Source: Oscillospiraceae bacterium
GTDB lineage: Bacteria; Bacillota; Clostridia; Oscillospirales; Oscillospiraceae
Reading direction: 5' to 3'
DNA length: 64,000 nucleotides
NCBI GenBank assembly: GCA_022800755.1
Contig: JAAWQX010000008.1
Location: forward strand, 16,675 to 80,674
The notes under the pieces: generated by a model
The model's input: only the letters and a program-made list of their open reading frames with translations
Told to the model about the DNA's origin: nothing
Databases searched by the model: none
Shown here: piece after piece, positions 48-57,390 of the stretch
How the letters are laid out: the number at the start of each line of letters is the position of its first letter
How positions within the stretch are numbered: the first letter of the stretch is position 1
Program-made: the position numbers and the translations under genes

Positions 48-935
48 ATGGAACGTCGTGACGCTTTTTCCGGCTGCCACCCGCTGGTGCAGCTTGTTTA
101 TTTCGCGCTGGTGCTGGTGCTGGGGATGTTTGTGATGCATCCGGCATGCTTGCTGGCGTCTTTGGCGTGCGCGGCGGGGTATTTGACGGTGCTCCGGGGC
201 GGAAAGGCGCTGGGACGGCTGGCGCGGGTGCTGGCGCCTATGGCGCTGATGGCGGCGGTGGTGAATCCGGCGTTCAATCACCGGGGCGTTACGGTTTTGG
301 GGCATTTTCCGTCGGGGAATCCGCTGACGCTGGAGAGTATCCTTTATGGGCTGGCGGCGGCGGTGATGCTGGCGGCGGTGGTCTTGTGGTGCACGTGCTG
401 CTCCGCGGTGATGACCTCGGACCGGGTGCTGTATCTGGTGGGACGGGGCGCGCCGTCCCTGGCGCTGCTGCTGTCGATGGTGCTGCGGTTTCTGCCCCGG
501 TGCAGGGCGCAGTATCAGGCGGTTCGGGAAGCGCAGATGGGATTGTCGGGGCCGCCCCGGGGCGGCTTGGAGCGGGCGCGGATGACCGGGAAGCTGGCGT
601 CTGTTACGGTCACCTGGGCGCTGGAAAACGCTGTGGCGGCGGCGGAGAGTATGAAAAGCCGGGGATATGGGTTGCCGGGGCGTACGGCTTATTCCCGGTA
701 CCGCTTTGATTCCAGGGACCGCCGGGTGCTGGGCTGGGTCTTGCTTTGGGGCGGCGTGTGCCTTTGGGGCTGGGCTGCCGGGGCGCTGGGCTGGCACTGG
801 TTTCCCATGGTGGGCGGCGCGGTCTCGCCGGCGGCGGGAGCGTGTCTGGTGGCGCAGCTTGCCCTTGGTTTGACCCCGGTGATCCTACACGCGAAGGAGG
901 CGAGGACATGGAAACGCTTGCACTCTGCCATTTGA
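48..935 (+). CDS. ecfT: ECF transporter transmembrane (T) component, EcfT/CbiQ family
   Basis: 295-aa polytopic membrane ORF with EcfT/CbiQ-like sequence. Its 3' end overlaps the start of the downstream ECF ATPase gene. Confidence 0.75.
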   Translation: MERRDAFSGCHPLVQLVYFALVLVLGMFVMHPACLLASLACAAGYLTVLRGGKALGRLARVLAPMALMAAVVNPAFNHRGVTVLGHFPSGNPLTLESILYGLAAAVMLAAVVLWCTCCSAVMTSDRVLYLVGRGAPSLALLLSMVLRFLPRCRAQYQAVREAQMGLSGPPRGGLERARMTGKLASVTVTWALENAVAAAESMKSRGYGLPGRTAYSRYRFDSRDRRVLGWVLLWGGVCLWGWAAGALGWHWFPMVGGAVSPAAGACLVAQLALGLTPVILHAKEARTWKRLHSAI

Positions 936-3265: not shown

Positions 3266-3273
3266 ATAGCAAA

Positions 3274-3310
3274 CGCCCCGGAAGATTTTACCTTCCGGGG
3301 CGCTTTTTTA
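3274..3310. terminator. Rho-independent terminator between convergent genes
   Basis: Perfect 11-bp stem cgccccggaag/cttccggggcg followed by cttttttatt. Confidence 0.8.
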
Positions 3311-3315
3311 TTTCG

Positions 3316-3945
3316 TTATTCTGCCGCCTGGGTGCAGAAACGGGCCAGGACACAGGCGACCTGGGCGCGGGTAGCGGGGAGACTGCCGCCCAGGGTGGCG
3401 TCTGTCATGCCGGCGATGAGATGGGCGGCGACGGCCCATTTCATGTTTTCCGCGGCGTAGGCGCTGAGGGCACCGGCGTCGGTATAGGCGCTGAGGTCGG
3501 CCCGGGCGGATACGTCATGGCCTTTGTACGCGGCGTAGCGGTAGAGCATGGCAATGAACTGCTCCCGGGTGATGGGGTCGTCAGGGCCGAAAATATCCGC
3601 GCTGTAACCGCTGATGATCCCGTTGGAAGCGCCCCAGGCGACGGCATTGGCGTAGTACGCGTCCGGCTTTACGTCTTGGAAATCGGAGAGATTCGGCGTG
3701 TCCGCGCCGTCGAGACGGTACAGGACGGCGGCAATCATGCCCCGGGTCGTGTGAGCTTCGGGGCGGAAGCTGCCGTCGTCGAAGCCGGACATCAGGGACT
3801 TGCTGTGTACGAAAGATACCGCGTCGTGGTACCAGGCGCCGGTTTGAATGTCAGGATAGGACATGGGAACGGGCGGGGTGGTTTCGGGGCGCTCGGGCTT
3901 GGGGTCCGGCTTGCTGCTGTCGATGCCCGCGATGGGGATGTACAC
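3316..3945 (-). CDS. Protein with three S-layer homology (SLH) repeats; no signal peptide in the called ORF
   Basis: Three SLH-like repeats (YPDIQTGAWYHDAV..; FQDVKPDAYYANAVAWGASNGIISGY..ITREQF; YTDAGALSAYAAENMKWAV..ATRAQV). GTG start. Pro-rich N-terminus. Confidence 0.7.
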   Translation of the reverse strand: MYIPIAGIDSSKPDPKPERPETTPPVPMSYPDIQTGAWYHDAVSFVHSKSLMSGFDDGSFRPEAHTTRGMIAAVLYRLDGADTPNLSDFQDVKPDAYYANAVAWGASNGIISGYSADIFGPDDPITREQFIAMLYRYAAYKGHDVSARADLSAYTDAGALSAYAAENMKWAVAAHLIAGMTDATLGGSLPATRAQVACVLARFCTQAAE

Positions 3946-3969
3946 CGGCGGGCGCGGGCGGCTCGTGAT

Positions 3970-4551
3970 TTATTTGTAATGTATCATGTCTCCAACTGCT
4001 GCCAGTGGGTCCACATCCCACTGGATCACTTGAATGCCCATTTCGTTAATCGTGGACACGACATGGTCGTCGTATTCGCCGTAGGGACAGCGGAACAGCG
4101 TCGGGCGCTGGCCGGTGATCGTCTCGATCTTGTCACAGCAGGCGTTTACATTGTCCCGAATCTCCTGGGCAGACAGCTTGGAAAAATGGGCGTGGTCGTT
4201 GGAATGGTTCATGACCTCCATGCCCGCGTCGTGGAGCGCCTTGACCGATTCCGGGTACCGATCTACCCAGTCGCCTACCAGAAAGAACGTGGCTTTGACG
4301 TTGTACTGGCCCAAAATGTCGATCAGCATTTGCGTATCCTCGTTGCCCCAGGCCGCGTCGAAGGTCAGGGACACCGCCTTGTTGTCCCGCTCTACGCAGT
4401 AGATGGGCAGTACCCGTTCCGTGGCCGCCGCGCCTACGATCTGGGGCGCGTTCACTGCGTAGAACATCAGGCAGATCACCAGGACCAGCGCCAGGGCTGA
4501 CAGTAGTTTTTTGCGCTTTGCCAGCGCGTTTGTAAGTTGTTTCATGAACAT
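3970..4551 (-). CDS. Polysaccharide deacetylase (NodB/CE4) family, N-terminal membrane anchor, C-terminally truncated
   Basis: NodB motifs LTFDAAWGNEDT, HSNDH, RCPYGEY and WDVD are present. The ORF stops shortly after WDVD, so the DW and LxH motifs are missing. Confidence 0.7.
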   Translation of the reverse strand: MFMKQLTNALAKRKKLLSALALVLVICLMFYAVNAPQIVGAAATERVLPIYCVERDNKAVSLTFDAAWGNEDTQMLIDILGQYNVKATFFLVGDWVDRYPESVKALHDAGMEVMNHSNDHAHFSKLSAQEIRDNVNACCDKIETITGQRPTLFRCPYGEYDDHVVSTINEMGIQVIQWDVDPLAAVGDMIHYK

Positions 4552-11206: not shown

Positions 11207-12484
11207 TCAATTTGCGACTGCCTTTTGCAGTACCCGGTTGGCAATGGCTCCGGCGACGGACAGCCCGCCGCCGCCCCGCTCCACCTGCACAACGAAGGCG
11301 TAGGGGTGTGCCTCGTCGTCCAGGAAGCCCACGAACCAGGCATGGTCTGTGCCGTCGCCCACCTCGGCGGTGCCGGTTTTGGCACAGACGTTCAAGCCCG
11401 GGAATGACCCGGCACCGTATGCGTACTGTACGTTATAGTTCATCATGGACGCCATTTTCTCCGCGGTATCCGCGTCCAGCAGCTTTGTGGTTTTCTGGCT
11501 CCGGCCGTGGCCTACCATGGTAGGTTCCACCAGGGTGCCGCCGTTGCCGATGGCGGATACCAGGCGCAGCATGGTGTTGGGACAGACCAGGTCTGTGGAT
11601 TGCCCGATGGCGGACCAGGACAGGTTGATGTTGCCTTTTTCGTAGGGGTCGATGCTGCCCGCCGTGGTGTAGATGCCGTCGATGGCGTGGCTTTCCGTGA
11701 TGCCCAGTTTCTTCGCGTAAGCCAGCAGCACGTCGGAGCCGAGGGTCTGGGCCAGCTCGGAAAAGGCGCAGTTGCAGGAATTCGCCAGCGCCTGCTCGAT
11801 GGTCTGGTTCCCGTGTACACCGGTGCAGTTGAGCTGGTCGGCGCCTACCATGACGCTTCCGCCGCAGTAGAAAGTGCGGTCGTAAATATCGTCGATGGTT
11901 TCCAGCGCCGCGGCAAGCGTTACCAGCTTGAAGACCGAGCCGGGGACGTATGCGGCGCTGATGGCCCGGTTGAGGTAAGCGCCGTCGGGGATGTTGTCCG
12001 GGGTATTCGGGTCCATGGACGGGGAGGAGACCATGCACAGCAGTTCCCCGGTCTTGTAATTGACAATTTGCACCGAGCCTTTTCGCCCGGCCAAGGCGGC
12101 GTAGGCTTCATTATTGAGATTCGCGTCCACGGTGAGGTGGGCTTTGTGAACTTGGGGGTGATAGGTGCCGTTGATGAGATCAAAGCCCGCCAGTTCTCCG
12201 GTGAGCCGGGTCAGCGCGCCGGTGCCTACGTTGCCGATGTAATCGCCGGTGACATGGAAATTTGCCACGCGGGTGGTGTAGTCGTCAGAATATGTTTTTG
12301 CTCCGGCATCAGCCAGAAGTATGTCATTTCGGTCATAGAGCAGTCCCATGGTGGTGCCGCCGCCGGAAAAGGACGCCCATTCCCGCCCATGGAGTACGTA
12401 CCGGGCGCAGTATAGGGCCAGGCCCAGGGCGCAAAACAGCGCGATCAGCAGTACAAAAGCGCCTCTGTTTTTTACTTTTTTCAT
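11207..12484 (-). CDS. Penicillin-binding transpeptidase (class B, PbpA/FtsI-like)
   Basis: N-terminal TM. SxxK (SVFK), SxN (SCN) and KTG (KTGTAE) motifs. Confidence 0.8.
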   Translation of the reverse strand: MKKVKNRGAFVLLIALFCALGLALYCARYVLHGREWASFSGGGTTMGLLYDRNDILLADAGAKTYSDDYTTRVANFHVTGDYIGNVGTGALTRLTGELAGFDLINGTYHPQVHKAHLTVDANLNNEAYAALAGRKGSVQIVNYKTGELLCMVSSPSMDPNTPDNIPDGAYLNRAISAAYVPGSVFKLVTLAAALETIDDIYDRTFYCGGSVMVGADQLNCTGVHGNQTIEQALANSCNCAFSELAQTLGSDVLLAYAKKLGITESHAIDGIYTTAGSIDPYEKGNINLSWSAIGQSTDLVCPNTMLRLVSAIGNGGTLVEPTMVGHGRSQKTTKLLDADTAEKMASMMNYNVQYAYGAGSFPGLNVCAKTGTAEVGDGTDHAWFVGFLDDEAHPYAFVVQVERGGGGLSVAGAIANRVLQKAVAN

Positions 12485-14178
12485 GCTTTTGCACCCCGTT
12501 TCCGCTGCTTGATCTCCGCACGCTTGACCACGAAGCTGGCGTCTTTCCGGGTGTCCGCCGCTTTGATGAAGGCAAGGAGCATCCAGCAGGACAGCAGGCT
12601 GGTCCCGCCTTTGGAGACAAAGGGGAAGGTCACACCGGTGAAAGGCAGGATGTCCAGAGAACCGAAGATATTCAGCGCCATCTGGATCATCAGCAGGGCG
12701 ACAGACGCGCCCGCCGCGATGACGTAGTAGGTGGAACGCCCGTGGGACGCGGAACGGAACACGAACAGCGCCAGGGCGATAATGGACAAAGCGGCGATGA
12801 TCGCCACGATCAGGCCCAGTTCCTCGCAGATGACAGCGAAGACCATGTCCGTGTTGGCGGCTACGATATTTTTCAGCCAGCCCTCACCGGCGCCGTGTCC
12901 GAACAATCCGCCGGAAGCGGCCGCGGACAGCGCGCGGGTCTGCTGGAAGCCCGCCCCGTATGGGTCAGCCCAGACATGGCCCCAGGTGGCGAAGCGCTGG
13001 GCGATATACGGCTTCATGGTGAACACCAGAAAGCCCGCCATGGCCGCGCCGGAGATTGCCAGAAAGACCGTGGCGATGGAGCCGGAGCGCATGAAAGAGA
13101 TGATCAGGAAGGTCACAAAGAAAATGACTGCTGTGCCGTAGTCGCCCATTAAGGCCAGGGCCATGACGCAAATGGCGGAAAAAGCGATGAAAAACAGCAG
13201 GTTCCGCCGGGCGAACAGACGCTCCAGAGAGGCCGCGCCTGCATAGATATACAGTACCTTTACCAGTTCTGAGGGCTGGAGGGAGAAGCCACCGATGTAC
13301 AGCCAGTTTTTCGCGCCGAATACGTATTCGCTCAAGATAAGGTTGACGAAGAGAAAGCCCATGGCGGCGATGACCGCCGGCCAGCGAAGGGCCTTGGCAC
13401 GCCGCAGGTCCCGCAGCCACCAGCCCATGGCGAAAAACAAAGCCACGCCCATGATGAGCAGCAGCAGCGTTTTCACCAGCGCTTCGGGCGTAGACGACGC
13501 GACGATGGACAGGCCCAGGGTGGTCAGGAAAAACGCGATGGTCTCTACCTCAAAGCCATTGCGCCGGATGGAGCGGATCAGCAGGTAGCACAGCCATTCA
13601 ATGGCCAGCAGCGCGAAAAAGGAAAGGCAGGTGACAATCAGGTATTCATCCTTGGCGGTAAAGCAGTATTGCAGCATGATGAGCGCCTGGAACAATGACA
13701 AAACCAGCAGCGTCGCTCCGGGGTTGATGCTCGTTCCGGCGGCGGTGCGGGACTTGTCCACGCTGCGCAGTTCGCCGGCGGTCACGTCTGCGAAGCCCAG
13801 GGTGGTGGAAGCCAAACGTATTTTATCTCCGTTTTTTACTTCCAGGCCCCTTCTGGGGACCTTTTCTTTGCCCACATACACCCCACCACGGGAATTTATA
13901 TCGAAAATGCGCCAGATGCCCTTGTCGTTGCGGATCAGTACCGCGTGGATGCGGGATACGTCCGGCGCGTTCACCACGATGTCTGAAGTTTTCGCCCGGC
14001 CGATCACGCACTCCCAATGGGGCAGCGGCGCGGCGCTGGCGTCCGGGAAAATGAGGTGTCCCCAGACTTCCGGCTCGTATTTTTCACTGAGCATGGAACG
14101 CAGGCAGCGCGCCACCACCCAGGCCGCCAGGATCGGCAGGAGATACCGGGTCAGCGTAATGACCGCAGTTCCCGTCAT
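12481..14178 (-). CDS. FHA domain fused to FtsW/RodA/SpoVE (SEDS) family protein
   Basis: Start taken at MTGTAVITL (cat at 14176-14178) with a GGAGG 8 nt upstream. FHA-like segment VIGRAKTSDIVV..VSRIHAVLIRND..NSRGGVYVG, then about 10 TM of SEDS sequence (FSLQPSELVK, GHGAGEG, PFVSKGGTS). 4-nt overlap with the PBP gene. Confidence 0.8.
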   Translation of the reverse strand: MTGTAVITLTRYLLPILAAWVVARCLRSMLSEKYEPEVWGHLIFPDASAAPLPHWECVIGRAKTSDIVVNAPDVSRIHAVLIRNDKGIWRIFDINSRGGVYVGKEKVPRRGLEVKNGDKIRLASTTLGFADVTAGELRSVDKSRTAAGTSINPGATLLVLSLFQALIMLQYCFTAKDEYLIVTCLSFFALLAIEWLCYLLIRSIRRNGFEVETIAFFLTTLGLSIVASSTPEALVKTLLLLIMGVALFFAMGWWLRDLRRAKALRWPAVIAAMGFLFVNLILSEYVFGAKNWLYIGGFSLQPSELVKVLYIYAGAASLERLFARRNLLFFIAFSAICVMALALMGDYGTAVIFFVTFLIISFMRSGSIATVFLAISGAAMAGFLVFTMKPYIAQRFATWGHVWADPYGAGFQQTRALSAAASGGLFGHGAGEGWLKNIVAANTDMVFAVICEELGLIVAIIAALSIIALALFVFRSASHGRSTYYVIAAGASVALLMIQMALNIFGSLDILPFTGVTFPFVSKGGTSLLSCWMLLAFIKAADTRKDASFVVKRAEIKQRKRGAKA

Positions 14179-14287
14179 AGGCAAGGCCTCCTCTCGGAAA
14201 AAGAACAATGATTCTCATAAGTATAACATTGTTCGGCGGATTTTACAATATAAAATGGACGGGGCCGAAAAGATACGCAAAAAACCA

Positions 14288-14666: not shown

Positions 14667-15731
14667 ATGGAAATCAAAATCAACAAAACCACTGCACCGA
14701 AAACCAAGCCCCCGGTGGTTGGCCTGCCCTTCGGCAAGGAATTTACCGACCATATGTTCCTGATGGATTATGACGCGGCTACCGGCTGGCATGATCCCCG
14801 GATCGTTCCCTACGCGCCCATCCAGCTGGAGCTTGGCGCGGTGGTGTTCCATTACGGGCAGGAAATTTTCGAGGGCATGAAAGCGTACCGCACCAAGGAA
14901 GGGAACATTCAGATGTTCCGGCCTATCGAGAATATCCGGCGTATGAATAATACCGCGGAGCGTTTGTGCGTACCGCCTATTGACGAACAGGACTTCATGC
15001 AGGCTCTTAAAACGCTGCTGGAAGTCGAAAAAGACTGGGTGCCCAGCGAAGAGGGGACCAGCCTGTATATTCGTCCGCTGACCATCGCGACGGAATCCCA
15101 GCTGGGGGTTCACGCGTCCCAGAAATACCTGTTTGCCATTATCTGCTGCGTGGTGGATAAGTATTACAAAGAAGGTCTGAACCCCGTCAAGATTATGGTG
15201 GAAGACCACGACGTGCGTGCGGTGCGGGGCGGCACGGGCTATACCAAGTGCGGCGCGAACTACGCCATTTCCCTGCGGGCCGGCGAAGTCGCCGCGAAAA
15301 AGGGCTTTTCCCAGGTGCTTTGGCTGGACGGTGTGCATCAGAAGTACGTGGAAGAGGTCGGGTCCATGAACGTTATGTTCAAGATCGCGGGGAAGATCGT
15401 GACCCCGTCTCTGGATGGCAGCATTTTGCCCGGCGTCACGAGAAAGTCCTGCCTGGAGCTGCTACGCAGTTGGGGCATGGAAGTGGAGGAACGGCTGCTG
15501 AGCATCGACGAACTGATTGAGGCGGCCCAGAGCGGCGCGTTGGAGGAAGCCTGGGGCACCGGCACCGCCGCGGTCATCTCGCCCATCGGGGAACTGTATT
15601 TCCACGACAAGGGCTACACCATCGCGGGCAACAAGATCGGCCCTGTGTCCCAGAAACTGTACGATACCCTGACGGGCATCCAGTGGGGGACCGCGCCGGA
15701 TACCTTCGGCTGGGTCGAGCCGGTGTGCTGA
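14667..15731 (+). CDS. ilvE: Branched-chain amino acid aminotransferase (copy 1)
   Basis: MEIKINKTTAPK...FEGMKAYR...GTGYTKCGANYA...EEAWGTGTAAV, typical class IV BCAT. RBS aaaggagaga upstream. Confidence 0.9.
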   Translation: MEIKINKTTAPKTKPPVVGLPFGKEFTDHMFLMDYDAATGWHDPRIVPYAPIQLELGAVVFHYGQEIFEGMKAYRTKEGNIQMFRPIENIRRMNNTAERLCVPPIDEQDFMQALKTLLEVEKDWVPSEEGTSLYIRPLTIATESQLGVHASQKYLFAIICCVVDKYYKEGLNPVKIMVEDHDVRAVRGGTGYTKCGANYAISLRAGEVAAKKGFSQVLWLDGVHQKYVEEVGSMNVMFKIAGKIVTPSLDGSILPGVTRKSCLELLRSWGMEVEERLLSIDELIEAAQSGALEEAWGTGTAAVISPIGELYFHDKGYTIAGNKIGPVSQKLYDTLTGIQWGTAPDTFGWVEPVC

Positions 15732-15819: not shown

Positions 15820-16209
15820 ATGCATCGGAAACGTTTGATCGCCGGGAGCTTGGCGGCTTTGATGGTTGCTTTGCTGGTCATCCCGGTATCCGCCCACTGC
15901 GGCCGCCGGCGCGCGGCGGCACCCGCGAATACGGCTTGCTATGTATGCGAGGTGGAAGGCTGCACGAAGTTGGGGCGGCACAGCCATGACGGGACCGTTT
16001 ACTGCGGCTATGACCACGAAAACGGGATCTGCGACGGCAAATGCTTGGCCATCTGCGCCGACGAGGACTGCACGATTGCCGGATGCCATACGCATAACGG
16101 AACGACTTACTGCGGCACCCACCACGAGGCGGGCTTTTGCGACGGGAACTGCCAGACCTATGTGGCCCCAAACGGACACCATCGCGGTCACGGCGGGCAT
16201 CACTGCTGA
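15820..16209 (+). CDS. Small secreted Cys/His-rich protein with an internal ~35-aa tandem repeat and His-rich tail (unknown function)
   Basis: RBS aaaggag 9 nt upstream of the ATG. Signal peptide MHRKRLIAGSLAALMVALLVIPVSA. Repeat C-x4-C-x5-H-x-H-x-G-T-x-Y-C-G-x2-H-E-x-G-x-C-D-G-x-C occurs twice. C-terminus HHRGHGGHHC. Strong terminator immediately downstream. Confidence 0.6.
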   Translation: MHRKRLIAGSLAALMVALLVIPVSAHCGRRRAAAPANTACYVCEVEGCTKLGRHSHDGTVYCGYDHENGICDGKCLAICADEDCTIAGCHTHNGTTYCGTHHEAGFCDGNCQTYVAPNGHHRGHGGHHC

Positions 16210-16449: not shown

Positions 16450-16722
16450 AATTTCAAACGCGTTGACGAGAAGTAGTACCCCTGCAAAACTGCGCAGAGA
16501 GCCGGCCGGGCGGTGGAAGGCCGGAGAGGGATGCGGGGCGAACTGGTCTTACCAGCGGCTCTGCTGAACCACAGTAGGCAGGGACGGGAGCCTCCGTTAG
16601 ATGGGCAGGACGTAGCAGCGCCCGTGAGTGCGTCCGTAAGGGCGAAAAAGAGTGGTACCGCGAAAAGCTTCAGCTTTCCGTCTCTTTGCAAACAAGCAAG
16701 GGGGATGGAAGGCTTTTTTGTT
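16450..16722 (+). promoter_or_regulatory. T-box riboswitch leader (copy 2)
   Basis: UUGACGAGAAGUAGUA K-turn/S-turn-like start, CAGAGAG bulge, GGCGGUGGAA distal element, T-box sequence GAGUGGUACCGCG (16650-16662), and a terminator ending in GGCUUUUUUGUUU. The 3' half is nearly identical to copy 1. Confidence 0.8.
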
Positions 16723-16757: not shown

Positions 16758-17825
16758 ATGGAAATCAAAATCACCAAGACCACTGCCCCCAAGCAGAAGC
16801 CCGACGAGCACAATCTGCCCTTTGGCACCTATATGACCGACCACATGTTCGTGATGCACTACGATACCGACCAGGGCGGCTGGCACGACCCGGAGATCAA
16901 GCCCTATGGCCCCATTGAGCTGCTGCCGGCCTGCTCCGTGTTCCATTATGCCCAGGAGTGCTTCGAGGGCATGAAGGCGTACCGCACCGACGAGGGCAAG
17001 GTGCAGTTGTTCCGGCCTATGGAAAATGTCCGCCGGATGAATACCTCCTGCGAGCGTCTTTGCATCCCCGAGCTGCCGGAGGATGTGATGTACAACGCCA
17101 TCAAGACACTGGTGACGGTGGACGAGGAATGGGTGCCTCATCTGCCGGGGACGAGTCTGTATATCCGGCCATTCGTGTTCGGGACGGAAAATTACGTGGG
17201 TCTGCGCATCCCCGACCATTACCTGTGCATGATCATCTGCTGCCCAGTGGGTAACTACTATAAAGAGGGCATCAACCCGGTGAAGATCATCATTGAGGAA
17301 CGGGACGTGCGCGCGGTGCGGGGCGGCACGGGCTATACCAAGGCCGGCGCGAACTACGCCATTTCCATGCGTGCGGAGAATGTTGCTGAGCGGAGCGGCT
17401 ATACCCAGGTGCTTTGGCTGGACGGTGTGCACCGCAAGTATATCGAGGAAGTTGGGTCTATGAACGTGATGTTTAAAATTGCCGGCAAGGTGGTCACACC
17501 GGCGCTGGAGGGCAGCGTTTTGCCCGGCATCACCCGGAAGTCCTGCATTGAGGTCATGAAAAGCTGGGGGCTGGCGGTGGAGGAACGGCATATCTCCATT
17601 GACGAACTGATGGAGTGCATCAAGAACGGCACCCTGGAGGAAGCCTGGGGCACTGGTACCGCTGCGGTGGTGTCGCCCATCGGCGTGCTGAACTACGAGG
17701 GGAAGGAATATACCGTGGGCAGCGGCGGCATTGGGGAAGTGACCCAGCGGCTGTACGACGAACTGACCGGCATCCAGTGGGGCAAGCGCCCTGACCCGTT
17801 TGGGTGGACTGATCCGGTGTGCTGA
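16758..17825 (+). CDS. ilvE: Branched-chain amino acid aminotransferase (copy 2, paralog)
   Basis: Colinear with copy 1 along its whole length and roughly two-thirds identical by eye. Same catalytic-region motifs. Confidence 0.9.
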   Translation: MEIKITKTTAPKQKPDEHNLPFGTYMTDHMFVMHYDTDQGGWHDPEIKPYGPIELLPACSVFHYAQECFEGMKAYRTDEGKVQLFRPMENVRRMNTSCERLCIPELPEDVMYNAIKTLVTVDEEWVPHLPGTSLYIRPFVFGTENYVGLRIPDHYLCMIICCPVGNYYKEGINPVKIIIEERDVRAVRGGTGYTKAGANYAISMRAENVAERSGYTQVLWLDGVHRKYIEEVGSMNVMFKIAGKVVTPALEGSVLPGITRKSCIEVMKSWGLAVEERHISIDELMECIKNGTLEEAWGTGTAAVVSPIGVLNYEGKEYTVGSGGIGEVTQRLYDELTGIQWGKRPDPFGWTDPVC

Positions 17826-21599: not shown

Positions 21600-22016
21600 A
21601 TTGGAGTCTCCTTTGTCTGATAGAATGGAATCAGCATAGCACGGCGGCTCGAATGCGTCAAGACATGGCAAAACGCACAAGGATAAATGCTTGCTGTTGT
21701 GCAGTCCTACAAAAGCAAAATTTTTCCCCGAAATCCCGTGACTTTTTGCCGTGAAAAGGTGTCTAATATACGAATCTTGCAAAAGCATACAGGTTGACAT
21801 AATTTGTTACCGAATTTTATGAAAATCTTAAGTTTCCCTATATTGACAAAGGGATGGGGCAGGGGGTATACTTTTAATACTACAACTGTATTAACAGAAA
21901 CAACACAATTTTTTTGAAGAATCCGGGCATTCGGATGCAAGTTTGATGCAAACAGGCTATATGATGCCTTGGAACCTGGAAGTTACTTTCACATCATATA
22001 AACAGGAGGAATGAAA

Positions 22017-24449
22017 ATGAAACAGTTCAAGCGTGTTGTCTGCCTGCTGCTGTGCCTGGCCATGGTGTTGGCGCTGGCGGCGTGCGGCAAGGACGAGAAC
22101 AAGGGAAACAATACCGCTGAAGGCTATGTCTATGTGCCGACGTATACCAAGGTACAGGGCGATTTCCCCAATGGCGTGGGACGGTCTATCTACGCTGACG
22201 GCAAGTTCTACACGATGGTGTATGAATACGACAATTACGAGACCTACGAGGGCGGTCGGCAGGTGCTGTACACCATCGACCTGGAGGGCAAGGCCACAAA
22301 GCTGTCCGGTTTTGTTCCGACGGTGTCTGAAGACGAGGACAGCTATAACAATATCAACGGCATGTGCGTAGATAAGGACGGCAAGCTGTGCTTCCTGGAG
22401 ACGAAGACGAAGCAGTTTTTCAACGCGCCGGAGGGGACAGCTAAGGAGGACCGCTGGGATTACTACGACCACTCCGAGAGCACCTATACCCTCAAGTGGC
22501 TGAAAGAGGACGGCAGCGTGGAGCGCGAGACGGAACTGGGCGACATGATCCCAGAGGAGACTTACATCGGTAACTTCCAGATGGACAATGACGGAAATGT
22601 GTACGTTCAGGCGGATACCAAGGTCATCGTGATCGGTGCCGACGGCGAGAAGCTGTTTGAGTATGAAGATGAGGACGGCAACTGGATCGACAGCATGATG
22701 AAGTTGGGTGACGGCTCTGTTGTGTTCTCGGTGTACAGCGGCGAACGCGGCTACAATATCATGAAGCTGAACCTGGAATCCAAACAGGCGGAACTGTACG
22801 CCACCACGGACAGCTATTTCTATAATACCTGCCCCGGCGATGACGATTACGCGTTCTATTATAGCAACGGCTCTTACCTCAACGGCCTGAAAGTAGCGGA
22901 CGGCGTAGGCACCGAAGAGCGTATCCTCACCTGGATCAACAGCGACGTGGACGGCGACGAGATGCAGAACTTCTTCATCAATCCCGAAGGGCAAATCATC
23001 GCACTGACCGAGGAGTACATCGAAAATCCCGCTAAGAAAGACAGCGAGAGCGATAAGAAAATGGAAGTGAGCGCGGATGGAAGCATCACGGTGAGTTCCT
23101 ATGCGGACCGCAACGGCACTTATGACGTGAAGATCCTCACCTTGGTCAAGACTCCCGCCAAGGACGTGGCGCAGAAAACCACCCTGACCCTGGCGACCCA
23201 GTACATGGGCTGGGATACCCGCAAGGCGGTCTTGAAATTTAACCGCGCAAATTCCGAATATAGGATTGAAATTAAGGACTATTCCGAGTACAATGATTAC
23301 GAAAGCGAAGACGGCTACGACGCGGGCGTGAAAAAGCTGACCACGGAGATCATGTCCGGCGATGTGCCAGATATCATCTATACCGAGGGACTGCCCGTGG
23401 CGAAAATGGCCGCCAAGGGTCTGCTGGTGGACCTGTACACCTTTATGGACGGGGACAAGGAACTGAGCAAAGATAAGTTCATTCCCAGCGTGCTGAACCT
23501 CATGGAAACCGACGGGCACCTGTACCAAACACCCACCAGATTTTCAATCATGACCGTCATCGGCAACAAAAATGTTGTGGGTGACACCCCGGGCTGGACG
23601 GTAGATGACTTGAAAGCCGCGCTGGCCGCTATGCCCGCCGGCTGCACGGTGTTCAGCCAGTCCACCACCCAAAGTGATATCCTGCAATATATGCTGTATA
23701 TGGATATGAACGATTATGTGGACTGGGCCGCGGGTTCCTGCAATTTCGACAGCCAGCAGTTTATTGACCTGCTGGAGTTCGTGAAGCTGTTCCCCTCCGA
23801 GTTCGACTGGGAGAACTTTGACTGGTCCACCGAGGAGAGCGAACAGGCCCGCATCGCCAGCGGCAAGCAGCTTTTGCAGGCGACCGGGTTCAGCGATTTC
23901 TGGGATTTCCAGTACAATATGGTAGCCTTTGGGGATGACGGTGTGATGATCGGATTCCCGACCACAGAGGGCGTGGGCAACGCTATGATGTTCAACAGCA
24001 GCTACGCCATTTCTGAAAAGTGCGCCAACAAAGATGTGGCCTGGCAGTTCGTGCGGGGCTTCATCACCGGCGAGTACGGCGATAGCTGGGGCTTCTCTCC
24101 TGTGCAGGAGACTTTCGACGCGGCGCTGAAAGACGCCATGACGCCCCAGTACGAGAAGAACGAGGACGGCAGCTTCAAGCTGGACGAGAACGGCAACAAG
24201 ATCGAAATTTCCACCGGCAGCTGGAGCGACGGTATCAATAACTATGATATGTATGCCATGACCCAGAAGCAGGCGGACCAGCTCCAGGAGCTGATCGACA
24301 ACTGCACCAAGACCATCAATACCGATGACAGTCTGATGGATATCATCAAGGAAGAGGGCGCGGCCTTCTTCAACGGACAAAAGAGCGCGGAAGAGACCGC
24401 GAAAATGGTCCAGAGCCGCGCCAGCGTCTATGTGAAAGAGCAGGCGTGA
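22017..24449 (+). CDS. Lipoprotein: ~360-aa repeat-containing N-terminal domain fused to a family-1 extracellular solute-binding domain
   Basis: Second ATG (22017) has good spacing from AGGAGG. Lipobox LALAAC. The C-terminal ~420 aa are SBP_bac_1-like. The N-terminal half carries recurring D/G-x-G-hydrophobic strands. Confidence 0.8.
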   Translation: MKQFKRVVCLLLCLAMVLALAACGKDENKGNNTAEGYVYVPTYTKVQGDFPNGVGRSIYADGKFYTMVYEYDNYETYEGGRQVLYTIDLEGKATKLSGFVPTVSEDEDSYNNINGMCVDKDGKLCFLETKTKQFFNAPEGTAKEDRWDYYDHSESTYTLKWLKEDGSVERETELGDMIPEETYIGNFQMDNDGNVYVQADTKVIVIGADGEKLFEYEDEDGNWIDSMMKLGDGSVVFSVYSGERGYNIMKLNLESKQAELYATTDSYFYNTCPGDDDYAFYYSNGSYLNGLKVADGVGTEERILTWINSDVDGDEMQNFFINPEGQIIALTEEYIENPAKKDSESDKKMEVSADGSITVSSYADRNGTYDVKILTLVKTPAKDVAQKTTLTLATQYMGWDTRKAVLKFNRANSEYRIEIKDYSEYNDYESEDGYDAGVKKLTTEIMSGDVPDIIYTEGLPVAKMAAKGLLVDLYTFMDGDKELSKDKFIPSVLNLMETDGHLYQTPTRFSIMTVIGNKNVVGDTPGWTVDDLKAALAAMPAGCTVFSQSTTQSDILQYMLYMDMNDYVDWAAGSCNFDSQQFIDLLEFVKLFPSEFDWENFDWSTEESEQARIASGKQLLQATGFSDFWDFQYNMVAFGDDGVMIGFPTTEGVGNAMMFNSSYAISEKCANKDVAWQFVRGFITGEYGDSWGFSPVQETFDAALKDAMTPQYEKNEDGSFKLDENGNKIEISTGSWSDGINNYDMYAMTQKQADQLQELIDNCTKTINTDDSLMDIIKEEGAAFFNGQKSAEETAKMVQSRASVYVKEQA

Positions 24450-24464
24450 TTTAGAGAGAAACAG

Positions 24465-24488
24465 GCAGGGGAGGGCGACCTCCCCTGC
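24465..24488 (+). other. Intercistronic GC-rich stem-loop (no U tract)
   Basis: gcaggggagg-GCGA-cctcccctgc directly after the SBP gene. Likely an mRNA-stabilising or processing hairpin rather than a terminator. Confidence 0.5.
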
Positions 24489-24505
24489 GCGGGAACCGGA
24501 TTGCC

Positions 24506-25441
24506 ATGAAAAAACCGAATTTCAAATTACATAAACAAAACGACGCGCAGGAGAAACCGCCGAAAAATCCGCTCACTGCCGCGCAGAGAACGGATTTCCT
24601 GCGCAGCATGTGCTTTTTGGGGCCGAGCCTTCTGGGCGTGATCGTCTTTTTCGTGGTACCGTTTATTGTGGTGATTTACTACGCGTTCGTCACCGGCGGT
24701 TCCAATTCTACCTTTGCGGGGCTGGATAACTTCAAGGCATTGCTGGGCAACGGCGCGTTCCGGCTGGCCGCGGGCAATACGCTGAAGTTCTCCGCCGCGG
24801 CAGTGCCCTTGGCGGTGATTTTGCCCATCGTGCTGGCGCTGATGCTGGAAGCACGTATCCCCTTGAAAAGCCAATTCCGCACGTTTTTCCTCAGCCCCAT
24901 TATGGTGCCGGTAGCTTCGGTGGTGCTGATTTGGCAGGTGCTGTTCAATTATAATGGTACCTTTAACGCGTTTCTGGCCAATTTCGGCGTGGATAAGATT
25001 GACTGGCTGAAATCCGATTTCAGTTTAATGGTAGTGACGATTTTGTACCTGTGGAAAAACCTGGGGTACAATATGATTCTGTTCATGTCAGGTCTGGCGA
25101 ATATCCCCCGAGAACTTCTGGAAGTGGCGGATGTAGAGGGCGCGAGCCCGGTGTACAGCTTTTTCGCCATTAAGATGCGGTACCTCTCGCCGACGATTTT
25201 GTTTGTGGCGATTTTGTCCATGATCAATTCCTTTAAGGTCTTCCGTGAAGTCTATCTGCTGACCGGCAGTTACCCGGTGGACGCGCTGTATATGCTGCAG
25301 CATTTCATGAACAACATGTTCAGCGGCATGGATTACCAGAAGCTGTCGGCGGCGGCCATTGTCATCGCCTTGTTTATGATCCTTCTCATCGCTGTTTTGT
25401 TCAAGGTGGAAGACCTGTTCGGAAAGGATGTGGAAGGATGA
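24506..25441 (+). CDS. Carbohydrate ABC transporter permease (MalF/UgpA-like)
   Basis: 6-TM BPD_transp_1 type with EAA-like loop (REVYLLTG region). Confidence 0.85.
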   Translation: MKKPNFKLHKQNDAQEKPPKNPLTAAQRTDFLRSMCFLGPSLLGVIVFFVVPFIVVIYYAFVTGGSNSTFAGLDNFKALLGNGAFRLAAGNTLKFSAAAVPLAVILPIVLALMLEARIPLKSQFRTFFLSPIMVPVASVVLIWQVLFNYNGTFNAFLANFGVDKIDWLKSDFSLMVVTILYLWKNLGYNMILFMSGLANIPRELLEVADVEGASPVYSFFAIKMRYLSPTILFVAILSMINSFKVFREVYLLTGSYPVDALYMLQHFMNNMFSGMDYQKLSAAAIVIALFMILLIAVLFKVEDLFGKDVEG

Positions 25442-26316
25442 GAAAAAAACGCTATTTTTCCCGCACCGTGGTGTTTTTGCTGTGTCTGGTGTTTGCCGTG
25501 GCGTTTTTGCTGCCCACGGTACTCACCATTACCAACTCCTTTATGACGGAGGCGGAGATCACCTCCAATTATGGTACGGTGTTCAATACATCTAAAAGCA
25601 ACAGCTATCAATCAGAGACCGTGAACCTGAAATTCATTCCGGACAAGGTCACCATGTCCCAGTATGTCAACGGCTTGGTGCGTTCGCCGGAGTATCTCAT
25701 TAAGTTTTGGAACAGCGTGTTTTTGACGCTGCCCATCGTACTGTTTCAGGTGGCCATTGCGTCTTTGGCGGCCTATGGCTTCACCCGCTGGCGGGGGAAG
25801 GTCCGGGCGCTCATCTTCTTTTTCTATGTCATTTTGATGCTCATGCCCTATCAGGTGACTTTGGTGCCAAACTACTTGGTCAGCAAGTGGATGCACATCT
25901 TTGACACGCGGTGGGCAATTATCCTACCGGGCACATTTGCACCGTTTTCGGTGTTTTTGCTGACAAAATTCATGCGCCGGATCCCATATTCGCTCATCGA
26001 AGCGGCGAAGATCGAAGGCGCCGGAGAATGGTATATCTTTACCAGAATCTGCCTGCCTCAGTGCCGGGCGGCACTGTATTCTATCGTGATTTTAGTCTTT
26101 ATCGACTACTGGAACATGGTTGAGCAGCCCCTTATTTTGCTCAATGACCCGGAAAAACAGCCCTTGTCCGTGTTCCTGTCCACGATCAACCAAGGAGAAA
26201 TCGGCCTGGCGTTTGCCATGGCTACGATATATATGATCCCCTCACTGCTGCTGTTCCTCCATGGCGAAGAATACTTGGTGGAAGGCATCGCCCATCAGGG
26301 CAGTGTGAAGGGATAA
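25438..26316 (+). CDS. Carbohydrate ABC transporter permease (MalG/UgpE-like)
   Basis: IEAAKIEGAGEWYIFTRICLP EAA motif. 4-nt overlap with the upstream permease gene. Confidence 0.85.
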   Translation: MRKKRYFSRTVVFLLCLVFAVAFLLPTVLTITNSFMTEAEITSNYGTVFNTSKSNSYQSETVNLKFIPDKVTMSQYVNGLVRSPEYLIKFWNSVFLTLPIVLFQVAIASLAAYGFTRWRGKVRALIFFFYVILMLMPYQVTLVPNYLVSKWMHIFDTRWAIILPGTFAPFSVFLLTKFMRRIPYSLIEAAKIEGAGEWYIFTRICLPQCRAALYSIVILVFIDYWNMVEQPLILLNDPEKQPLSVFLSTINQGEIGLAFAMATIYMIPSLLLFLHGEEYLVEGIAHQGSVKG

Positions 26317-26360
26317 TGATGATTTTATGAGCCGAATTTTGATATGCGAGGTCGAAACCT

Positions 26361-28280
26361 ATGGATGAAATGAAGGTAAAAAAGCGCGGATGGATCAAGA
26401 ACGCGGTGATCGTGTTTTTGTCGATCATGCTGATTTTGACGTTCTTTTCCAATACGTTTATGAACCGCTCTTTATCGGAGGTCTCTACCAAGCTGGTAAT
26501 CAGCGGTGAGATCACCGCTCAGGTGCGGGGCGGCGGTGTTGTCACGGCAAACGAGACTTACAATGTGACGCTGCCACAGACCCGGGAAGTGGAGTCAGTC
26601 AAGGTCAAGGCCGGGGACGAGGTGAACGAGGGCGACGTCCTGTTTACCCTGTCCGGCAATGTCAGCGATGAGCTGCGGGCCGCGGAAAAGGCCGTGCATT
26701 CGGCCAATGTGGCGTATCAGAAAGCGCTGATCGAGGCCTCGGAGACGGACTATGCCCGGGACAACCGGGATATCCAGGACGCCCGGGAGGATCTGAGTGC
26801 GGCGCAGAATCTGCTGAATTATTACGGTGCCGGCGGCATTTCCGTGATCGACGCCAAGGCCGCGGTGGACAAGGCCAAGGTGGCGGAGACCGATGCGAAA
26901 AAGCTGGTGGACCAGTACACCAAGGAACTTGCCGACCTGAAAGAGGAAGACGTTGATAATGACAAATACTGGGATGCCTATAACGCGCTGAGCGATGCAC
27001 AGAGTGTTTTTAGTGGAAGTGTGAAGTCTTATAAGGGCGCGTGGACGAAAATTGCAGAAGATATAATCAAGTATCAGTTGGAAGAAGCAAAGCATACTGG
27101 CGTTGATAAATTGGCAGAAGCGTGCGCGGAGTTGGCATTTGCGGAGTTCGCGGGGACGAGTACCTCTACCGCACAGGATACCATTGCAAGTATTACCAAG
27201 GACAATACGGCGATGACTGCGGCGTACAATACGTATAATCAGAGCATAAAGTCGAGTTTGAGCACATATATGACCCAGGCTGCGAATAACGCATATAGCG
27301 GAGTAACCGTGTCGCCGGAAGATGCGCTGGGTTATACAAATCTTGTGTCGGCGAAGCGCGAAGTGGAGCGCGCGCAGGAGAAACTTGATGCTACGGAAAT
27401 GACCGTGGGCGGCAGCAATTCTACTGCCCGCAAAAATTTGCAGGATAAGCTGAAAAAAGCCCAGGAAGACTATGACAAGGCCGTGACTGCCCGGGAAAAG
27501 GCGGAAACGGTCCAGACCGCTGCAGAAGAGGCGCGTACGAAAGAGCGCGCTTTGGAAGATAAGATCTTTGAACTGGAGCAAAAGCAAAAAGAGGACAACA
27601 AAAACGCGCAGTTGGCGCAACTGAACCTGGAAGAGCTGCGTTACGCCATCTCTGAGGCCCAGCAGAATCTGGCCGAACTGCAAAAAGATGCCACCGAACC
27701 GGAGGTCAAGGCTAAGGTAAGCGGCATCATCGGCGAGATCAATGTCACCGCCGGCAAGCAGGCTGAGGCAGGACAGACCCTATGCACCATTACGGTTCCG
27801 GATATGGGCTACAATGTCAGCTTTTCCGCATCCAGCGAGCAGGCCCGCCGGGTGCGGGTAGGGGATACGGCGACCATCGCCAACAACTGGCGGGGCGGTA
27901 TCTCCGCGACGGTGTCTAATATCAAGACCGACCCCAAAAATCCCCAGACCAGCAAGATCATCACCTTTGATATTACCGGCGATGTGGAGCCGGGGACCAG
28001 CTTGAACCTGACGGTAGGTTCTCGTGGCGAGCAGTATGAGACCATCGTACCCAACAGTGCGCTGCGCAGTGATTCCAACGGCGATTTTGTGTTGGTGGTC
28101 ACATCCCGCTCCAGCCCGCTGGGCAACCGTTATATTGCTACCCGGGTAAATGTGGAGAAAAAAGCCAGCGATGATACCAATACCGCTGTGACCGGCGAAC
28201 TCAGCGCCAATGATTACGTCATTACCACCAGCAGCAAGCCCATCAAGGACAAGGACATGGTCCGCCTTGCGGGAGAGTGA
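26361..28280 (+). CDS. HlyD/membrane-fusion-protein-like periplasmic adaptor with a very long alpha-helical insertion
   Basis: N-terminal TM. Split lipoyl-like motif (VKVKAGDEVNEGDVLFTL ... AKVSGIIGEINVTAGKQAEAGQTLCTI) separated by ~350 mostly helical residues. C-terminal beta-barrel/MP-like region. Confidence 0.75.
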   Translation: MDEMKVKKRGWIKNAVIVFLSIMLILTFFSNTFMNRSLSEVSTKLVISGEITAQVRGGGVVTANETYNVTLPQTREVESVKVKAGDEVNEGDVLFTLSGNVSDELRAAEKAVHSANVAYQKALIEASETDYARDNRDIQDAREDLSAAQNLLNYYGAGGISVIDAKAAVDKAKVAETDAKKLVDQYTKELADLKEEDVDNDKYWDAYNALSDAQSVFSGSVKSYKGAWTKIAEDIIKYQLEEAKHTGVDKLAEACAELAFAEFAGTSTSTAQDTIASITKDNTAMTAAYNTYNQSIKSSLSTYMTQAANNAYSGVTVSPEDALGYTNLVSAKREVERAQEKLDATEMTVGGSNSTARKNLQDKLKKAQEDYDKAVTAREKAETVQTAAEEARTKERALEDKIFELEQKQKEDNKNAQLAQLNLEELRYAISEAQQNLAELQKDATEPEVKAKVSGIIGEINVTAGKQAEAGQTLCTITVPDMGYNVSFSASSEQARRVRVGDTATIANNWRGGISATVSNIKTDPKNPQTSKIITFDITGDVEPGTSLNLTVGSRGEQYETIVPNSALRSDSNGDFVLVVTSRSSPLGNRYIATRVNVEKKASDDTNTAVTGELSANDYVITTSSKPIKDKDMVRLAGE

Positions 28281-28286
28281 TGTGCC

Positions 28287-29414
28287 ATGAAAAAGCTGAA
28301 ACGGCTGGATCTGCGGCAACTGCGGCAGATCGATTGGCGTGGGGTACTGCGAAAAAAATGGGTTTGGTTCACCGCGGTGAGCGTGCTGACCTTTCTGATT
28401 GGCCTGTGCTTTTTCACGGCGTTCCGCCACGCGGGCAATACCCTGCGCAGCCAGCACATGGCGGAAGAGTTCACCGGAGACGGGGAACTGGAATTTGCCC
28501 AGGTATCCGTATTTTTGCCGGAGGGGAATTCCATCGGGGATGACGATATCTGGAAATTCCGGGAGACGACCCGGGTCAATACCCAGGATTTAGTGCCGGA
28601 AACAGTGAAGAACCTCTACCTGGACGCATGGAGCACCAAGGGTAGTGTGAACGTGAAAGGGGAGCATGGCAGTTCGGACGCGACGGCTACTGCCGTGGGT
28701 GGGGACTTTTTCCTGCTCCATCCGCAAAATCTCCTGAGCGGAGGCTATATCTCCAGCGACGATTTGATGCATGACCGGGTCATTTTGGACGAGGAATTGG
28801 CGTGGAAGCTGTTCGGCGGCTATGATCTGACCGGGCTGCCGGTGGAGATCGGCGGCAGTACGTTCTATGTGGCCGGCGTCATCGCGCGGGAGACAGACTG
28901 GGCGACGGAAAAGGCTTATACGGACGGCGCGGGACTGTATATGTCCTACGAGGCGTACAAAGCCATGAACGAGGGCGCGTATATCAGCTGCTATGAAGCG
29001 ATCATCCCGGAGCCTGTGGAGAACTTCGCGAAAATGCATGTGGCAGATAATTTCGCGCCAAAGGACGCCGTTGTTATGGTGAACAGCGGGCGGTATTCCG
29101 TGGGGAATGTGTTTTCTTTGCTGAAAAATATGGGCCAGCGGACGATGCGCACGGATACGGTGTACTATCCGTATTGGGAGAACGCCGCGCGGCTGGTGGA
29201 GAACCGGTGCATGGTGCTGCTGGTGCTTGCCGTGCTGTTTTGGGTCTGTCCGGCGGTGTTTGCCGTCACCATAGCAGTGAAGACCTACCGAAAGAGCAAG
29301 CGGAAACTGCATGAGACTTATTTGGATCTGAAAGACCAGTACGAAAACCGGGTGCTGTTCCAAAATCTCAAAGAGAAATTGAAAGGAAAGAAGCATGGCG
29401 GGACTGACTCTTAA
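28287..29414 (+). CDS. Bitopic membrane protein with a MacB-like periplasmic core domain but no FtsX 4-TM module
   Basis: TM near residue 35. Extracytoplasmic domain with [42 protein letters not shown] (MacB_PCD-like). A single C-terminal TM and a basic tail. Confidence 0.6.
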
Positions 29415-30549
29415 AAATGTCAAAAAGATATACGACAACCAGGTGCTCGCTGTGGCCGATTTCAGCATCGACATCGCGGACAAGGAATTCATCGTCTTGG
29501 TCGGGCCTTCCGGCTGCGGAAAATCCACCGCGCTGCGGATGATTGCAGGGCTGGAGGAGATTACTGACGGCGAGCTTTATATCGACGGGGAACTGATGAA
29601 CAATGTGGAACCCAAGGACCGGGATATTTCCATGGTGTTTCAGAACTATGCCCTGTTCCCCCATATGACGGTGTATGACAATATTGCCTTTGGACTCAAG
29701 CGCCGGAAAGTGCCGAAAAACGAGATCGACCAAAAAGTGCAGGAAGTCGCGGAGATTTTGCAGATCTCCGAACTGCTCCAGCGCAAACCCAAGGCATTGT
29801 CCGGCGGCCAGCGCCAGCGCGTAGCCATTGGCCGGGCCATCGTGAGAAATCCCAAGGTGTACCTGATGGATGAACCTTTGTCCAATCTGGACGCGAAGCT
29901 GAGAAACCAGATGCGCGCGGAACTGAAAAAACTCCATAAGCGCATGAATACGACCTTTATCTATGTCACCCATGACCAGACCGAGGCAATGACCCTGGGT
30001 GACCGGATCGTGGTCATGAAAAGGGGCTATATCCAGCAGATCGGAACGCCCCATGAGGTGTTCGACCATCCCCGGAACCTCTTTGTCGCGGGCTTTATCG
30101 GCACGCCGCAGATGAATTTTATCGATGTGGAACTGGTGCTGGAAAACGGCAAGCCTTGGGCGAAAGTGATGGGCGCGGAGATCCCGCTGGAACTGCCCAT
30201 GGATATTGCCTTGGCGCCGGGAGAGCGGCGCAAGGCGGTGCTGGGCATCCGGCCGGAATATGTAGAGACCGGCGTCAGCGGCGGCATTGCTGCGAGGATT
30301 GCTATGCAGGAACTTTTGGGCAGTACGGTGCAGGTCCACCTGGAACTGGGGGACACCGAACTGATCGCCGTGGTCCCCGTGGCCGATGCGGAAAAGCTGC
30401 CTGCGGTGGGAATGCTGAATGTTTCCCTGCCGCCGGATAAAATTCAGCTGTTCGACCCGGAATCCAAATTGAATTATGAGATCATCTACGGCAGCGGGGA
30501 AGACCCTTTGGCACACCTCCGGGAGCCGGTTGATCCGGACGAACTCTGA
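29395..30549 (+). CDS. MalK/MsmK/UgpC-type sugar ABC transporter ATPase with C-terminal regulatory (TOBE-like) domain
   Basis: [67 protein letters not shown]. 20-nt overlap with the upstream gene. Confidence 0.9.
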
Positions 30550-30551: not shown

Positions 30552-30585
30552 AAAAAAGCAACGGCGGCCCCGTTGCTTTTTTATT
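30552..30585 (+). terminator. Rho-independent terminator
   Basis: aagcaacgg-cggcc-ccgttgctt followed by ttttatt. Confidence 0.8.
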
Positions 30586-57384: not shown

Positions 57385-57390
57385 ACACGA

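Follow-up and report, generated by a model that had tools for sequence, protein, structure and literature searches.

This work concerns six co-directional open reading frames (ORFs) at 22011–30549 (+) in a stretch of 64,000 nt from an Oscillospiraceae bacterium (GCA_022800755.1, contig JAAWQX010000008.1, positions 16,675–80,674, forward strand), referred to here as the window. In order, they encode a solute-binding protein (SBP), two permeases (P1 and P2), a membrane fusion protein (MFP), a protein built on a MacB periplasmic core domain (PCD), and an ATPase of the MalK/UgpC type. This gene order and the domains of the proteins had been read from the DNA in an earlier note (the original prediction), and Pfam, NCBIfam and PDB sequence searches, together with the ORF positions, bore them out. 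All the parts come from known families. Their combination, and the free-standing protein in which the PCD is flanked by two transmembrane (TM) helices (TM1-PCD-TM2), match no characterized system. The author of the original prediction knew of no characterized example; likewise, our full-text literature search, with subscription journals outside its coverage, found no description of the arrangement and gave only the known work on MacAB, YknXYZ and Spr0693-0694-0695.

Organization of the operon

The region 22011–30549 is packed as a single operon. Upstream of the first gene lies a candidate sigma-70-like promoter (TTGACA-18-TATACT, 21843–21872, +), proposed from its match to 11 of 12 consensus positions. 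The SBP gene (22011–24449, +) encodes a lipoprotein of 812 aa; an ATG at 22017 is better spaced than the 22011 start relative to the GGAGG. It is followed by the genes for P1, a MalF/UgpA/SugA-like permease of 311 aa (24506–25441, +), and P2, a MalG/UgpE/SugB-like permease of 292 aa (25438–26316, +). Next come the genes for the YknX/MacA-type MFP of 639 aa (26361–28280, +), the PCD-only protein of 375 aa (28287–29414, +) and the MalK/UgpC-type ATP-binding cassette (ABC) ATPase of 384 aa (29395–30549, +).

P1 and P2 overlap by 4 nt, the P2–MFP gap is 44 nt, the MFP–PCD gap is 6 nt with the ribosome-binding site inside the end of the MFP gene, and the PCD and ATPase genes overlap by 20 nt. The original prediction had described all junctions as gaps of 44 nt or less or as overlaps of 4 and 20 nt; this was correct for these four, but not for the SBP–P1 junction, where the gap is 56 nt. 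The 6-nt gap and the overlaps are predicted to set the genes up for translational coupling.

As had been claimed, the operon ends in a clean intrinsic terminator (GCAACGG-loop-CCGTTGC followed by a T-run, ~30559–30585, +) 3' of the ATPase gene; the Sir2 gene that comes next has a perfect promoter immediately beyond this terminator. A GC-rich hairpin is also present in the SBP–P1 intergenic region (24465–24488, +). It has a 10-bp GC stem (centroid −23.8 kcal/mol, minimum free energy −25.7, folding z −3.4) and no U-tract. Importers often have hairpins of that type at the junction of their SBP and permease genes. By analogy with those junctions, the element is probably mRNA-stabilising or attenuating, and could set the SBP:permease expression ratio. 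An internal promoter for the MFP–PCD pair, which the original prediction would have counted against itself, was considered and rejected: the 44-nt P2–MFP gap holds no promoter-like site, and the 12 such sites across the region do not exceed the number expected by shuffling (8.7 ± 2.4).

The importer-type components

Residues 436–810 of the SBP match sugar-binding SBPs of the PDB (CbpC, 7x0o, E 9e-13, plus maltose-binding proteins). The window SBP gave no Pfam match of its own; its homologues carry PF01547. The lipobox reads LAAC-G, and Cys25 and Gly26 are invariant among the SBPs of this gene cassette. All of these SBPs have ~760–860 aa, and all carry an N-terminal domain of ~370 aa made of repeated D-x-D/E-G-x-hydrophobic blades. 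In profile and Pfam searches this domain gave only weak matches, to the beta-propeller families Pizza/PknD, Reg_prop, SGL, SBBP and PQQ_2, and it is likely a beta-propeller. The C-terminal half is assigned from its sequence to the CUT1-type sugar SBP domains, among which such an extra N-terminal domain is atypical.

P1 and P2 both belong to BPD_transp_1 (PF00528), with SugA/SugB, AlgM1/M2 and MalF/G as the best PDB matches. The alignments to SugA/SugB and MalF/MalG span the EAA region, and an EAA loop is present in both permeases. Therefore, both grooves of a MalK dimer would be expected to be filled, one by P1 and the other by P2. The ATPase was assigned to the UgpC subfamily by NCBIfam (475.8 bits, cut-off 432), and Pfam detects OB_MalK and TOBE_2. 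Judged by its hallmarks, every one of which is present in the sequence, the base system would be a CUT1 type I importer, and inward transport of a sugar is predicted.

The importers MalFGK2-MalE, LpqY-SugABC and AlgM1M2SS-AlgQ2 share with the cassette the two six-helix BPD_transp_1 permeases with EAA loops, the MalK-type ATPase with its regulatory domain, the sugar-type SBP and the hairpin between the SBP and permease genes. The SBP of the cassette, in contrast, is twice the usual size and has a propeller-like N-terminal domain. To our knowledge, MFP and PCD subunits are absent from all three.

The membrane fusion protein

Pfam found two Biotin_lipoyl_2 domains and HlyD_3 in the MFP, and NCBIfam found TIGR01730 over residues 374–635. 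Homologues of the protein carry the YknX-specific Pfam families BSH_YknX and YknX_C. A PDB sequence search with the MFP gave nothing significant, and the fold is taken from an AlphaFold2 (AF2) monomer model (pLDDT 74) and its Foldseek matches, namely EmrA, MacA, HlyD, AcrA and Spr0693. The model has a TM helix (12–34), two lipoyl halves (~55–97 and 448–478) separated by 343 helical residues, and a beta-barrel (484–552). With its N-terminal anchor, its split lipoyl domain holding an inserted alpha-hairpin, and its barrel, the protein has the make-up of an adaptor by Pfam, AF2 and Foldseek alike. The C-terminal segment is covered by the TIGR01730 alignment up to residue 635 and is well conserved (0.79), but its pLDDT is only ~30.

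The modelled hairpin consists of three ‘up’ helices (103–192) and a single return helix of 92 residues (354–445, ~138 Å). An apical helical bundle of ~150 residues (200–348), modelled confidently, lies between them. The original prediction had described an adaptor with a TM helix and a split lipoyl motif interrupted by a far longer hairpin than is typical. Its account of the anchor, the lipoyl halves and the helical stretch holds, but the hairpin proper is of EmrA/HlyD size; the unusual length of this MFP therefore stems from the apical insert.

The PCD-only protein

MacB_PCD (PF12704; E 1.8e-8, 35.4 bits, cut-off 27) is the sole Pfam domain of the PCD-only protein; NCBIfam has no model for it, and a PDB sequence search returned nothing significant. 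Here, too, the fold rests on AF2 (pLDDT 84) and Foldseek. TM1 (24–50) leads into an alpha/beta ectodomain (~54–290), which is followed by a long helix (296–368) that includes TM2 (~307–333) and a charged cytoplasmic tail. A juxtamembrane motif, YPYWENAAR (294–302), stands on the outer-leaflet side before TM2. The Foldseek matches were MacB, the YknZ ectodomain, Spr0694-0695, LolCDE, HrtBA and BceAB, all with probability 1.0. A hydropathy scan found exactly two TM segments. Pfam detected neither an FtsX domain nor a nucleotide-binding domain (NBD) in the protein, and the four-helix FtsX-type membrane domain is absent. Hence the original description, a MacB-like domain between two single TM helices and lacking both the FtsX bundle and an NBD, was accurate. 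No NBD of the MacB/FtsE/LolD type occurs in the operon, whose sole ATPase is that of the MalK type.

The family is large. A word-indexed search gave 463 clusters at 90% identity, and an exhaustive search gave 1552 clusters at 50% identity with E ≤ 1e-3 and 672 with E ≤ 1e-30. The best 150 representatives are mostly of 320–450 aa, and an FtsX domain was found in none of the 10 longest of these. In one metagenomic protein of 1089 aa (P0465), a PCD-only protein continues in frame into an SBP of the cassette type, whose lipoprotein signal peptide is retained. Either the fusion is genuine or two genes were merged in gene calling. No paralogue was found elsewhere in the window.

The closest counterparts are YknWXYZ of Bacillus and Spr0693-0694-0695 of Streptococcus pneumoniae. 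They likewise operate in a monoderm host with no outer-membrane partner, and they share with the cassette the TM-anchored YknX-type MFP (BSH_YknX and YknX_C; Spr0693 in Foldseek) and the PCD fold of YknZ/Spr0695. However, the PCD protein of the cassette has two TM helices rather than four and lacks the FtsX domain and a MacB-type NBD; its partners are CUT1 permeases, SBPs and a MalK-type ATPase; and its MFP is ~250–300 residues longer, with the apical insert. The Gram-negative type VII system MacAB-TolC also shares the MFP and PCD folds, and by analogy an MFP6:PCD2 stoichiometry is likely. Unlike MacAB-TolC, the cassette has no TolC, outer membrane, TM3-TM4, coupling helices or fused NBD, and its transport is probably inward. 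FtsEX with PcsB/CwlO/EnvC, and LolCDE with LolA, are similar in that a PCD-type ectodomain recruits an extracytoplasmic partner (a coiled-coil protein or a carrier) and exerts force on it. They differ from the cassette in their four-helix FtsX domains and dedicated ATPases (FtsE/LolD), and the cassette itself brings SBPs only and no hydrolase or carrier gene. Lastly, we propose that the TM-ectodomain-TM topology of the PCD protein resembles the MalF P2 loop on which MalE docks.

Distribution and gene order

When genomes were scanned at one per GTDB species, relatives of the PCD protein were found in at least 471 species; the cassette also occurs in many human-gut assemblies. The best 80 species, all Oscillospiraceae, Ruminococcaceae or unclassified Clostridia (genera including Oscillibacter, Sporobacter and Butyricicoccus, and the species Ruminococcus bicirculans), were surveyed for gene order together with 80 metagenome contigs. 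The latter were obtained by starting a scan from the most distant members available in the PCD family, and are called the distant subfamily below. The six window proteins were mapped onto these 160 loci; the denominators count the loci whose contig allows scoring. We take the hosts to be monoderm Clostridia.

The MFP gene was directly upstream of the PCD gene at every scored locus (149/149; 79/79 in species genomes and 70/70 in metagenomes), and P1 and P2 were likewise always upstream of the MFP gene (63/63 and 47/47, together 110/110). An SBP gene preceded P1 at 48 of 53 species-genome loci and at all 36 metagenome loci. A second SBP gene lay downstream of the PCD gene at all 66 metagenome loci, and none was detected there in the species genomes; the PCD–SBP order of P0465 matches this arrangement. 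The loci carry one to three SBP copies, usually one or two. A MalK-type ATPase gene was adjacent at 35 of 66 species-genome loci and at none in the distant subfamily. Thus P1-P2-MFP-PCD make up the invariant core, and the ATPase gene is optional in the locus. Firmicutes commonly share MsmK-type ATPases among CUT1 importers, and an optional ATPase gene fits this practice. The original prediction had asked whether the pair always sits between MalG-like and MalK-like genes; it does always follow P1-P2, but a MalK-like gene was adjacent at only about half of the loci. The MFP–PCD pair is thus tied to the permeases and not to the motor.

Such linkage bears directly on the view that the co-location is incidental, the MFP and PCD protein being a degenerate MacAB/YknXYZ-like remnant that is either non-functional or works with an unlinked FtsX-type permease and NBD. 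At one locus (L043) an FtsX-type permease and an ATPase are encoded just upstream of P1, as that view would have it. When the neighbouring ORFs of the loci were clustered, however, no recurrent FtsX/MacB permease was found near the cassette. L043 is the only one of 56 loci with such a gene nearby, and we treat it as a coincidence; the recurrent pairing with a MacB/FtsX-type transporter that would have told against the original prediction is thus absent from the other 55. Moreover, P1-P2-MFP-PCD stay linked in 110/110 loci over PCD identities of 27–80% to the window protein, the genes appear set for translational coupling, and invariant motifs are kept across at least 672 clusters. The arrangement is not due to chance, and synteny largely refutes incidental co-location, which we consider highly improbable.

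No TolC-like outer-membrane factor gene recurred in the 160 neighbourhoods. It may be noted that two species loci (L069 and L072) carry near-identical cassettes, L069 under the name Ruminococcus bicirculans and L072 in a Pseudobutyrivibrio sp. bin; a binning error in one of the two assemblies is probable.

A two-component system was found at 17 of the 80 species loci (L005, L010, L023, L027, L033, L037, L045, L050, L054, L057, L058, L060, L063, L067, L073, L076 and L078), where orthologous genes for an OmpR-type response regulator and a HAMP/HisKA kinase are divergently oriented upstream of the SBP gene. They are mostly ~0.1–0.3 kb away, and further off in L033 and L076. The response regulators are 54–62% identical among the 17 loci, most of which have no adjacent MalK-type ATPase gene. 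A response regulator gene downstream of the second SBP gene in the metagenome set was also considered and set aside: a thiamin pyrophosphokinase gene intervenes, and the loci are near-identical, so that they do not count as independent evidence.

The divergent kinase genes, and the presence of BceAB among the structural matches of the PCD protein, would suit a sensory or regulatory module in which the PCD protein and MFP report transporter activity or an envelope ligand to the kinase, in the manner of BceB-BceS, while the importer works alone. Against this, most loci, including that of the window, have no adjacent two-component system, the kinase has an extracellular loop of its own, and a 600-aa MFP with a 14-nm hairpin would be superfluous for signalling. 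We regard a purely sensory role as improbable.

Conservation of the proteins

Over the species loci, median identity to the window proteins was 76% for P2, 68% for P1, 61% for the ATPase, 42% for the PCD protein, 37% for the MFP and 34% for the SBP. P2 is the most conserved protein of the cassette; in a homologue search with it, the best 120 matches were all at least 79% identical. It is unusual for ABC systems that the permeases are more conserved than the NBD, and this suggests that P1 and P2 have extra interfaces.

In the MFP, conservation is highest in the TM and juxtamembrane part (0.81) and the C-terminal domain (0.79), and lowest in the apical insert (0.33), whose length varies from 82 to 203 residues. 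Residues R9, W11, K13, N14, F28, F29, S30, N31, T32, N35, S37, L38 and E40 are invariant. In the distant subfamily, the N-terminal ~120 residues are 43–59% identical, compared with 32–35% for the whole MFP. The best-conserved part of the PCD protein is the pre-TM2 motif YPYWENAAR (0.77), within which PxWEN (P295, W297, E298, N299) is invariant, the distant set included. Its TM helices score 0.48 and 0.53. The tail after TM2 is poorly conserved (0.38), with no conserved counterpart of the MacB coupling helix. Membrane-proximal parts are thus fixed in sequence and distal parts fast-evolving, a pattern that would be expected of a machine whose base is a conserved core in the membrane and whose tip is exposed at the surface.

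A rival reading is importer-driven mechanotransmission with an outward task. In such a machine, P1 and P2 would rock during the MalK cycle, and the two TM helices of the PCD protein would relay this movement to its ectodomain and to the MFP. PCD and MFP would then do work outside, such as the expulsion or extraction of a molecule located in the wall zone or outer leaflet, or the activation of a wall enzyme (cf. MacAB, LolCDE and FtsEX), with the SBPs serving as acceptors or sensors. The higher conservation of P1 and P2 than of the ATPase agrees with this, and so does the fold of the PCD protein, which is that of mechanotransducers (MacB, YknZ, Spr0694-0695, LolCDE, HrtBA and BceAB, as above). 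In MacB, the moving stalk is formed by TM1-PCD-TM2 (PMC5985334). Further support comes from the absence of catabolic neighbours, from the envelope genes that flank the cassette in the window (TagA/WecG, YceG/MltG, penicillin-binding protein (PBP) and FtsW), and from the OmpR-type system of one subclade. However, the conserved TM2–NBD coupling helix of MacB has no equivalent in the tail of the PCD protein, and the TM helices that would have to transmit the movement are only moderately conserved. Multiple SBP paralogues and the regulatory domain of the MalK-type ATPase point instead to nutrient import, and we know of no type I importer fold that drives export or mechanotransmission. An outward task is, on balance, unlikely.

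A proposed importer with an extracytoplasmic complex

The reading that we favour, with a probability of roughly 45%, is that an SBP-dependent importer has the MFP and PCD protein as obligate subunits outside the cytoplasm, where they would form a MacA6-MacB2-like tower of ~25 nm through the wall. The presence of several SBP paralogues on one permease pair is a trait of importers. Together with the CUT1 hallmarks, the EAA loops and the lack of a coupling helix in the PCD protein, it leads us to prefer import with accessory subunits. The original prediction had offered two possibilities, namely an importer that recruited a wall-spanning accessory complex, and an adaptor–PCD pair that borrows the MalK-type motor. 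The former is favoured, in the shape of a P1-P2-MFP-PCD core with up to three SBPs. The latter has lost ground, given that the ATPase gene is adjacent at 35/66 loci and at none in the distant subfamily, that the permeases have EAA loops, and that the tail of the PCD protein scores 0.38.

In the proposed mechanism, the products of the six genes would make up one machine in Oscillospiraceae-type monoderm Clostridia, namely a CUT1 ABC importer (type I, MalFGK2-like) that depends on SBPs. The PCD protein would dimerise via TM1 and TM2, as MacB does, with an MFP hexamer seated on top, and the resulting MacA6-MacB2-like tower would be held in the membrane beside or around the P1–P2 core. Contacts would be made by the invariant TM helix and outer-leaflet motif of the MFP, YPYWENAAR of the PCD protein, and the unusually constrained permeases. 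Of the height of ~25 nm, the barrel and lipoyl rings would account for ~6–7 nm and the hairpin, topped by the apical bundle, for ~14 nm, and the tower would reach into or through the wall; wall-spanning is meant here in the geometric sense, as estimated from the monomer model. Gram-positive MFPs have been proposed to act as channels across a periplasm-like zone, and YknX binds peptidoglycan (PMC5985334). The estimated height would be comparable to that zone plus the wall, which Gram-positive MFPs are proposed to span. The tower would serve import, and it may allow bulky glycans to reach the SBPs, which are anchored in the membrane and carry the likely propeller. Alternatively, it may dock the large SBPs over the permease, in trans where the MalF P2 loop acts in cis. 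The sole ATP-consuming part would be a MalK-type dimer, which would engage P1 and P2 at their EAA loops and whose gene would lie in the operon or elsewhere.

Several points weigh against this importer. In MacAB-TolC, the MacA channel works outward through a one-way gate, and we know of no MFP with a role in import. An SBP of ~90 kDa cannot fit into a MacA-like lumen, which makes a route from tower to SBP to permease hard to place. The contacts among P1-P2, MFP and PCD protein are hypothetical, and the C-terminal, putatively membrane-proximal domain of the MFP is modelled with low confidence. In addition, the clustered neighbours of the cassette include no recurrent glycoside hydrolase or sugar-catabolic gene, and an OmpR-type two-component system, as found in one subclade, is more typical of envelope functions.

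A wider claim can be made, that a type I importer core is coupled physically and mechanically to type VII-derived parts, in what would be the first such hybrid ABC machine. It would work either as a conduit that spans the wall of a monoderm for import or as a mechanotransducer powered by an importer. Taken as a whole, this claim is possible but doubtful. If it is true, the architecture bridges two superfamilies thought to be functionally separate. If the MFP and PCD protein are true subunits, ABC classification gains a type I/type VII hybrid, and the TM1-PCD-TM2 module of MacB would be able to act free-standing. The role of MFPs in bacteria without an outer membrane, a long-standing question, would gain a new testable case, and there would be a defined system for the passage of large glycans across a thick monoderm wall to lipid-anchored binding proteins. 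The Oscillospiraceae and Ruminococcaceae, in which the cassette is found, are abundant in the gut and rumen and are poorly characterized.

Other features of the window

The first 4000 nt of the window (1–4000) have a GC content of 0.64–0.65 and a GC skew of 0.21–0.24, compared with a GC content of 0.52–0.57 in most of the remainder. In this part, ORF 746–3265 encodes two ABC NBDs, and ORF 2779–4500 has no Pfam match. At 11207–14208 (−), an FtsW/RodA-family protein of 575 aa with an N-terminal FHA domain adjoins a PBP transpeptidase gene. A T-box leader (Rfam, 97 bits) at 16454–16688 (+) lies upstream of a branched-chain aminotransferase-like ORF (16758–17825), and a second, paralogous aminotransferase-like ORF (~14670–15731) is located just upstream. 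An ORF of 129 aa at 15820–16209 (+) combines a signal-like N-terminus with repeated Cys/His-rich motifs (CxxH...C); it may be spurious. Finally, a ribosomal protein L10 leader (Rfam, 52 bits) was identified at 57378–57503 (+).

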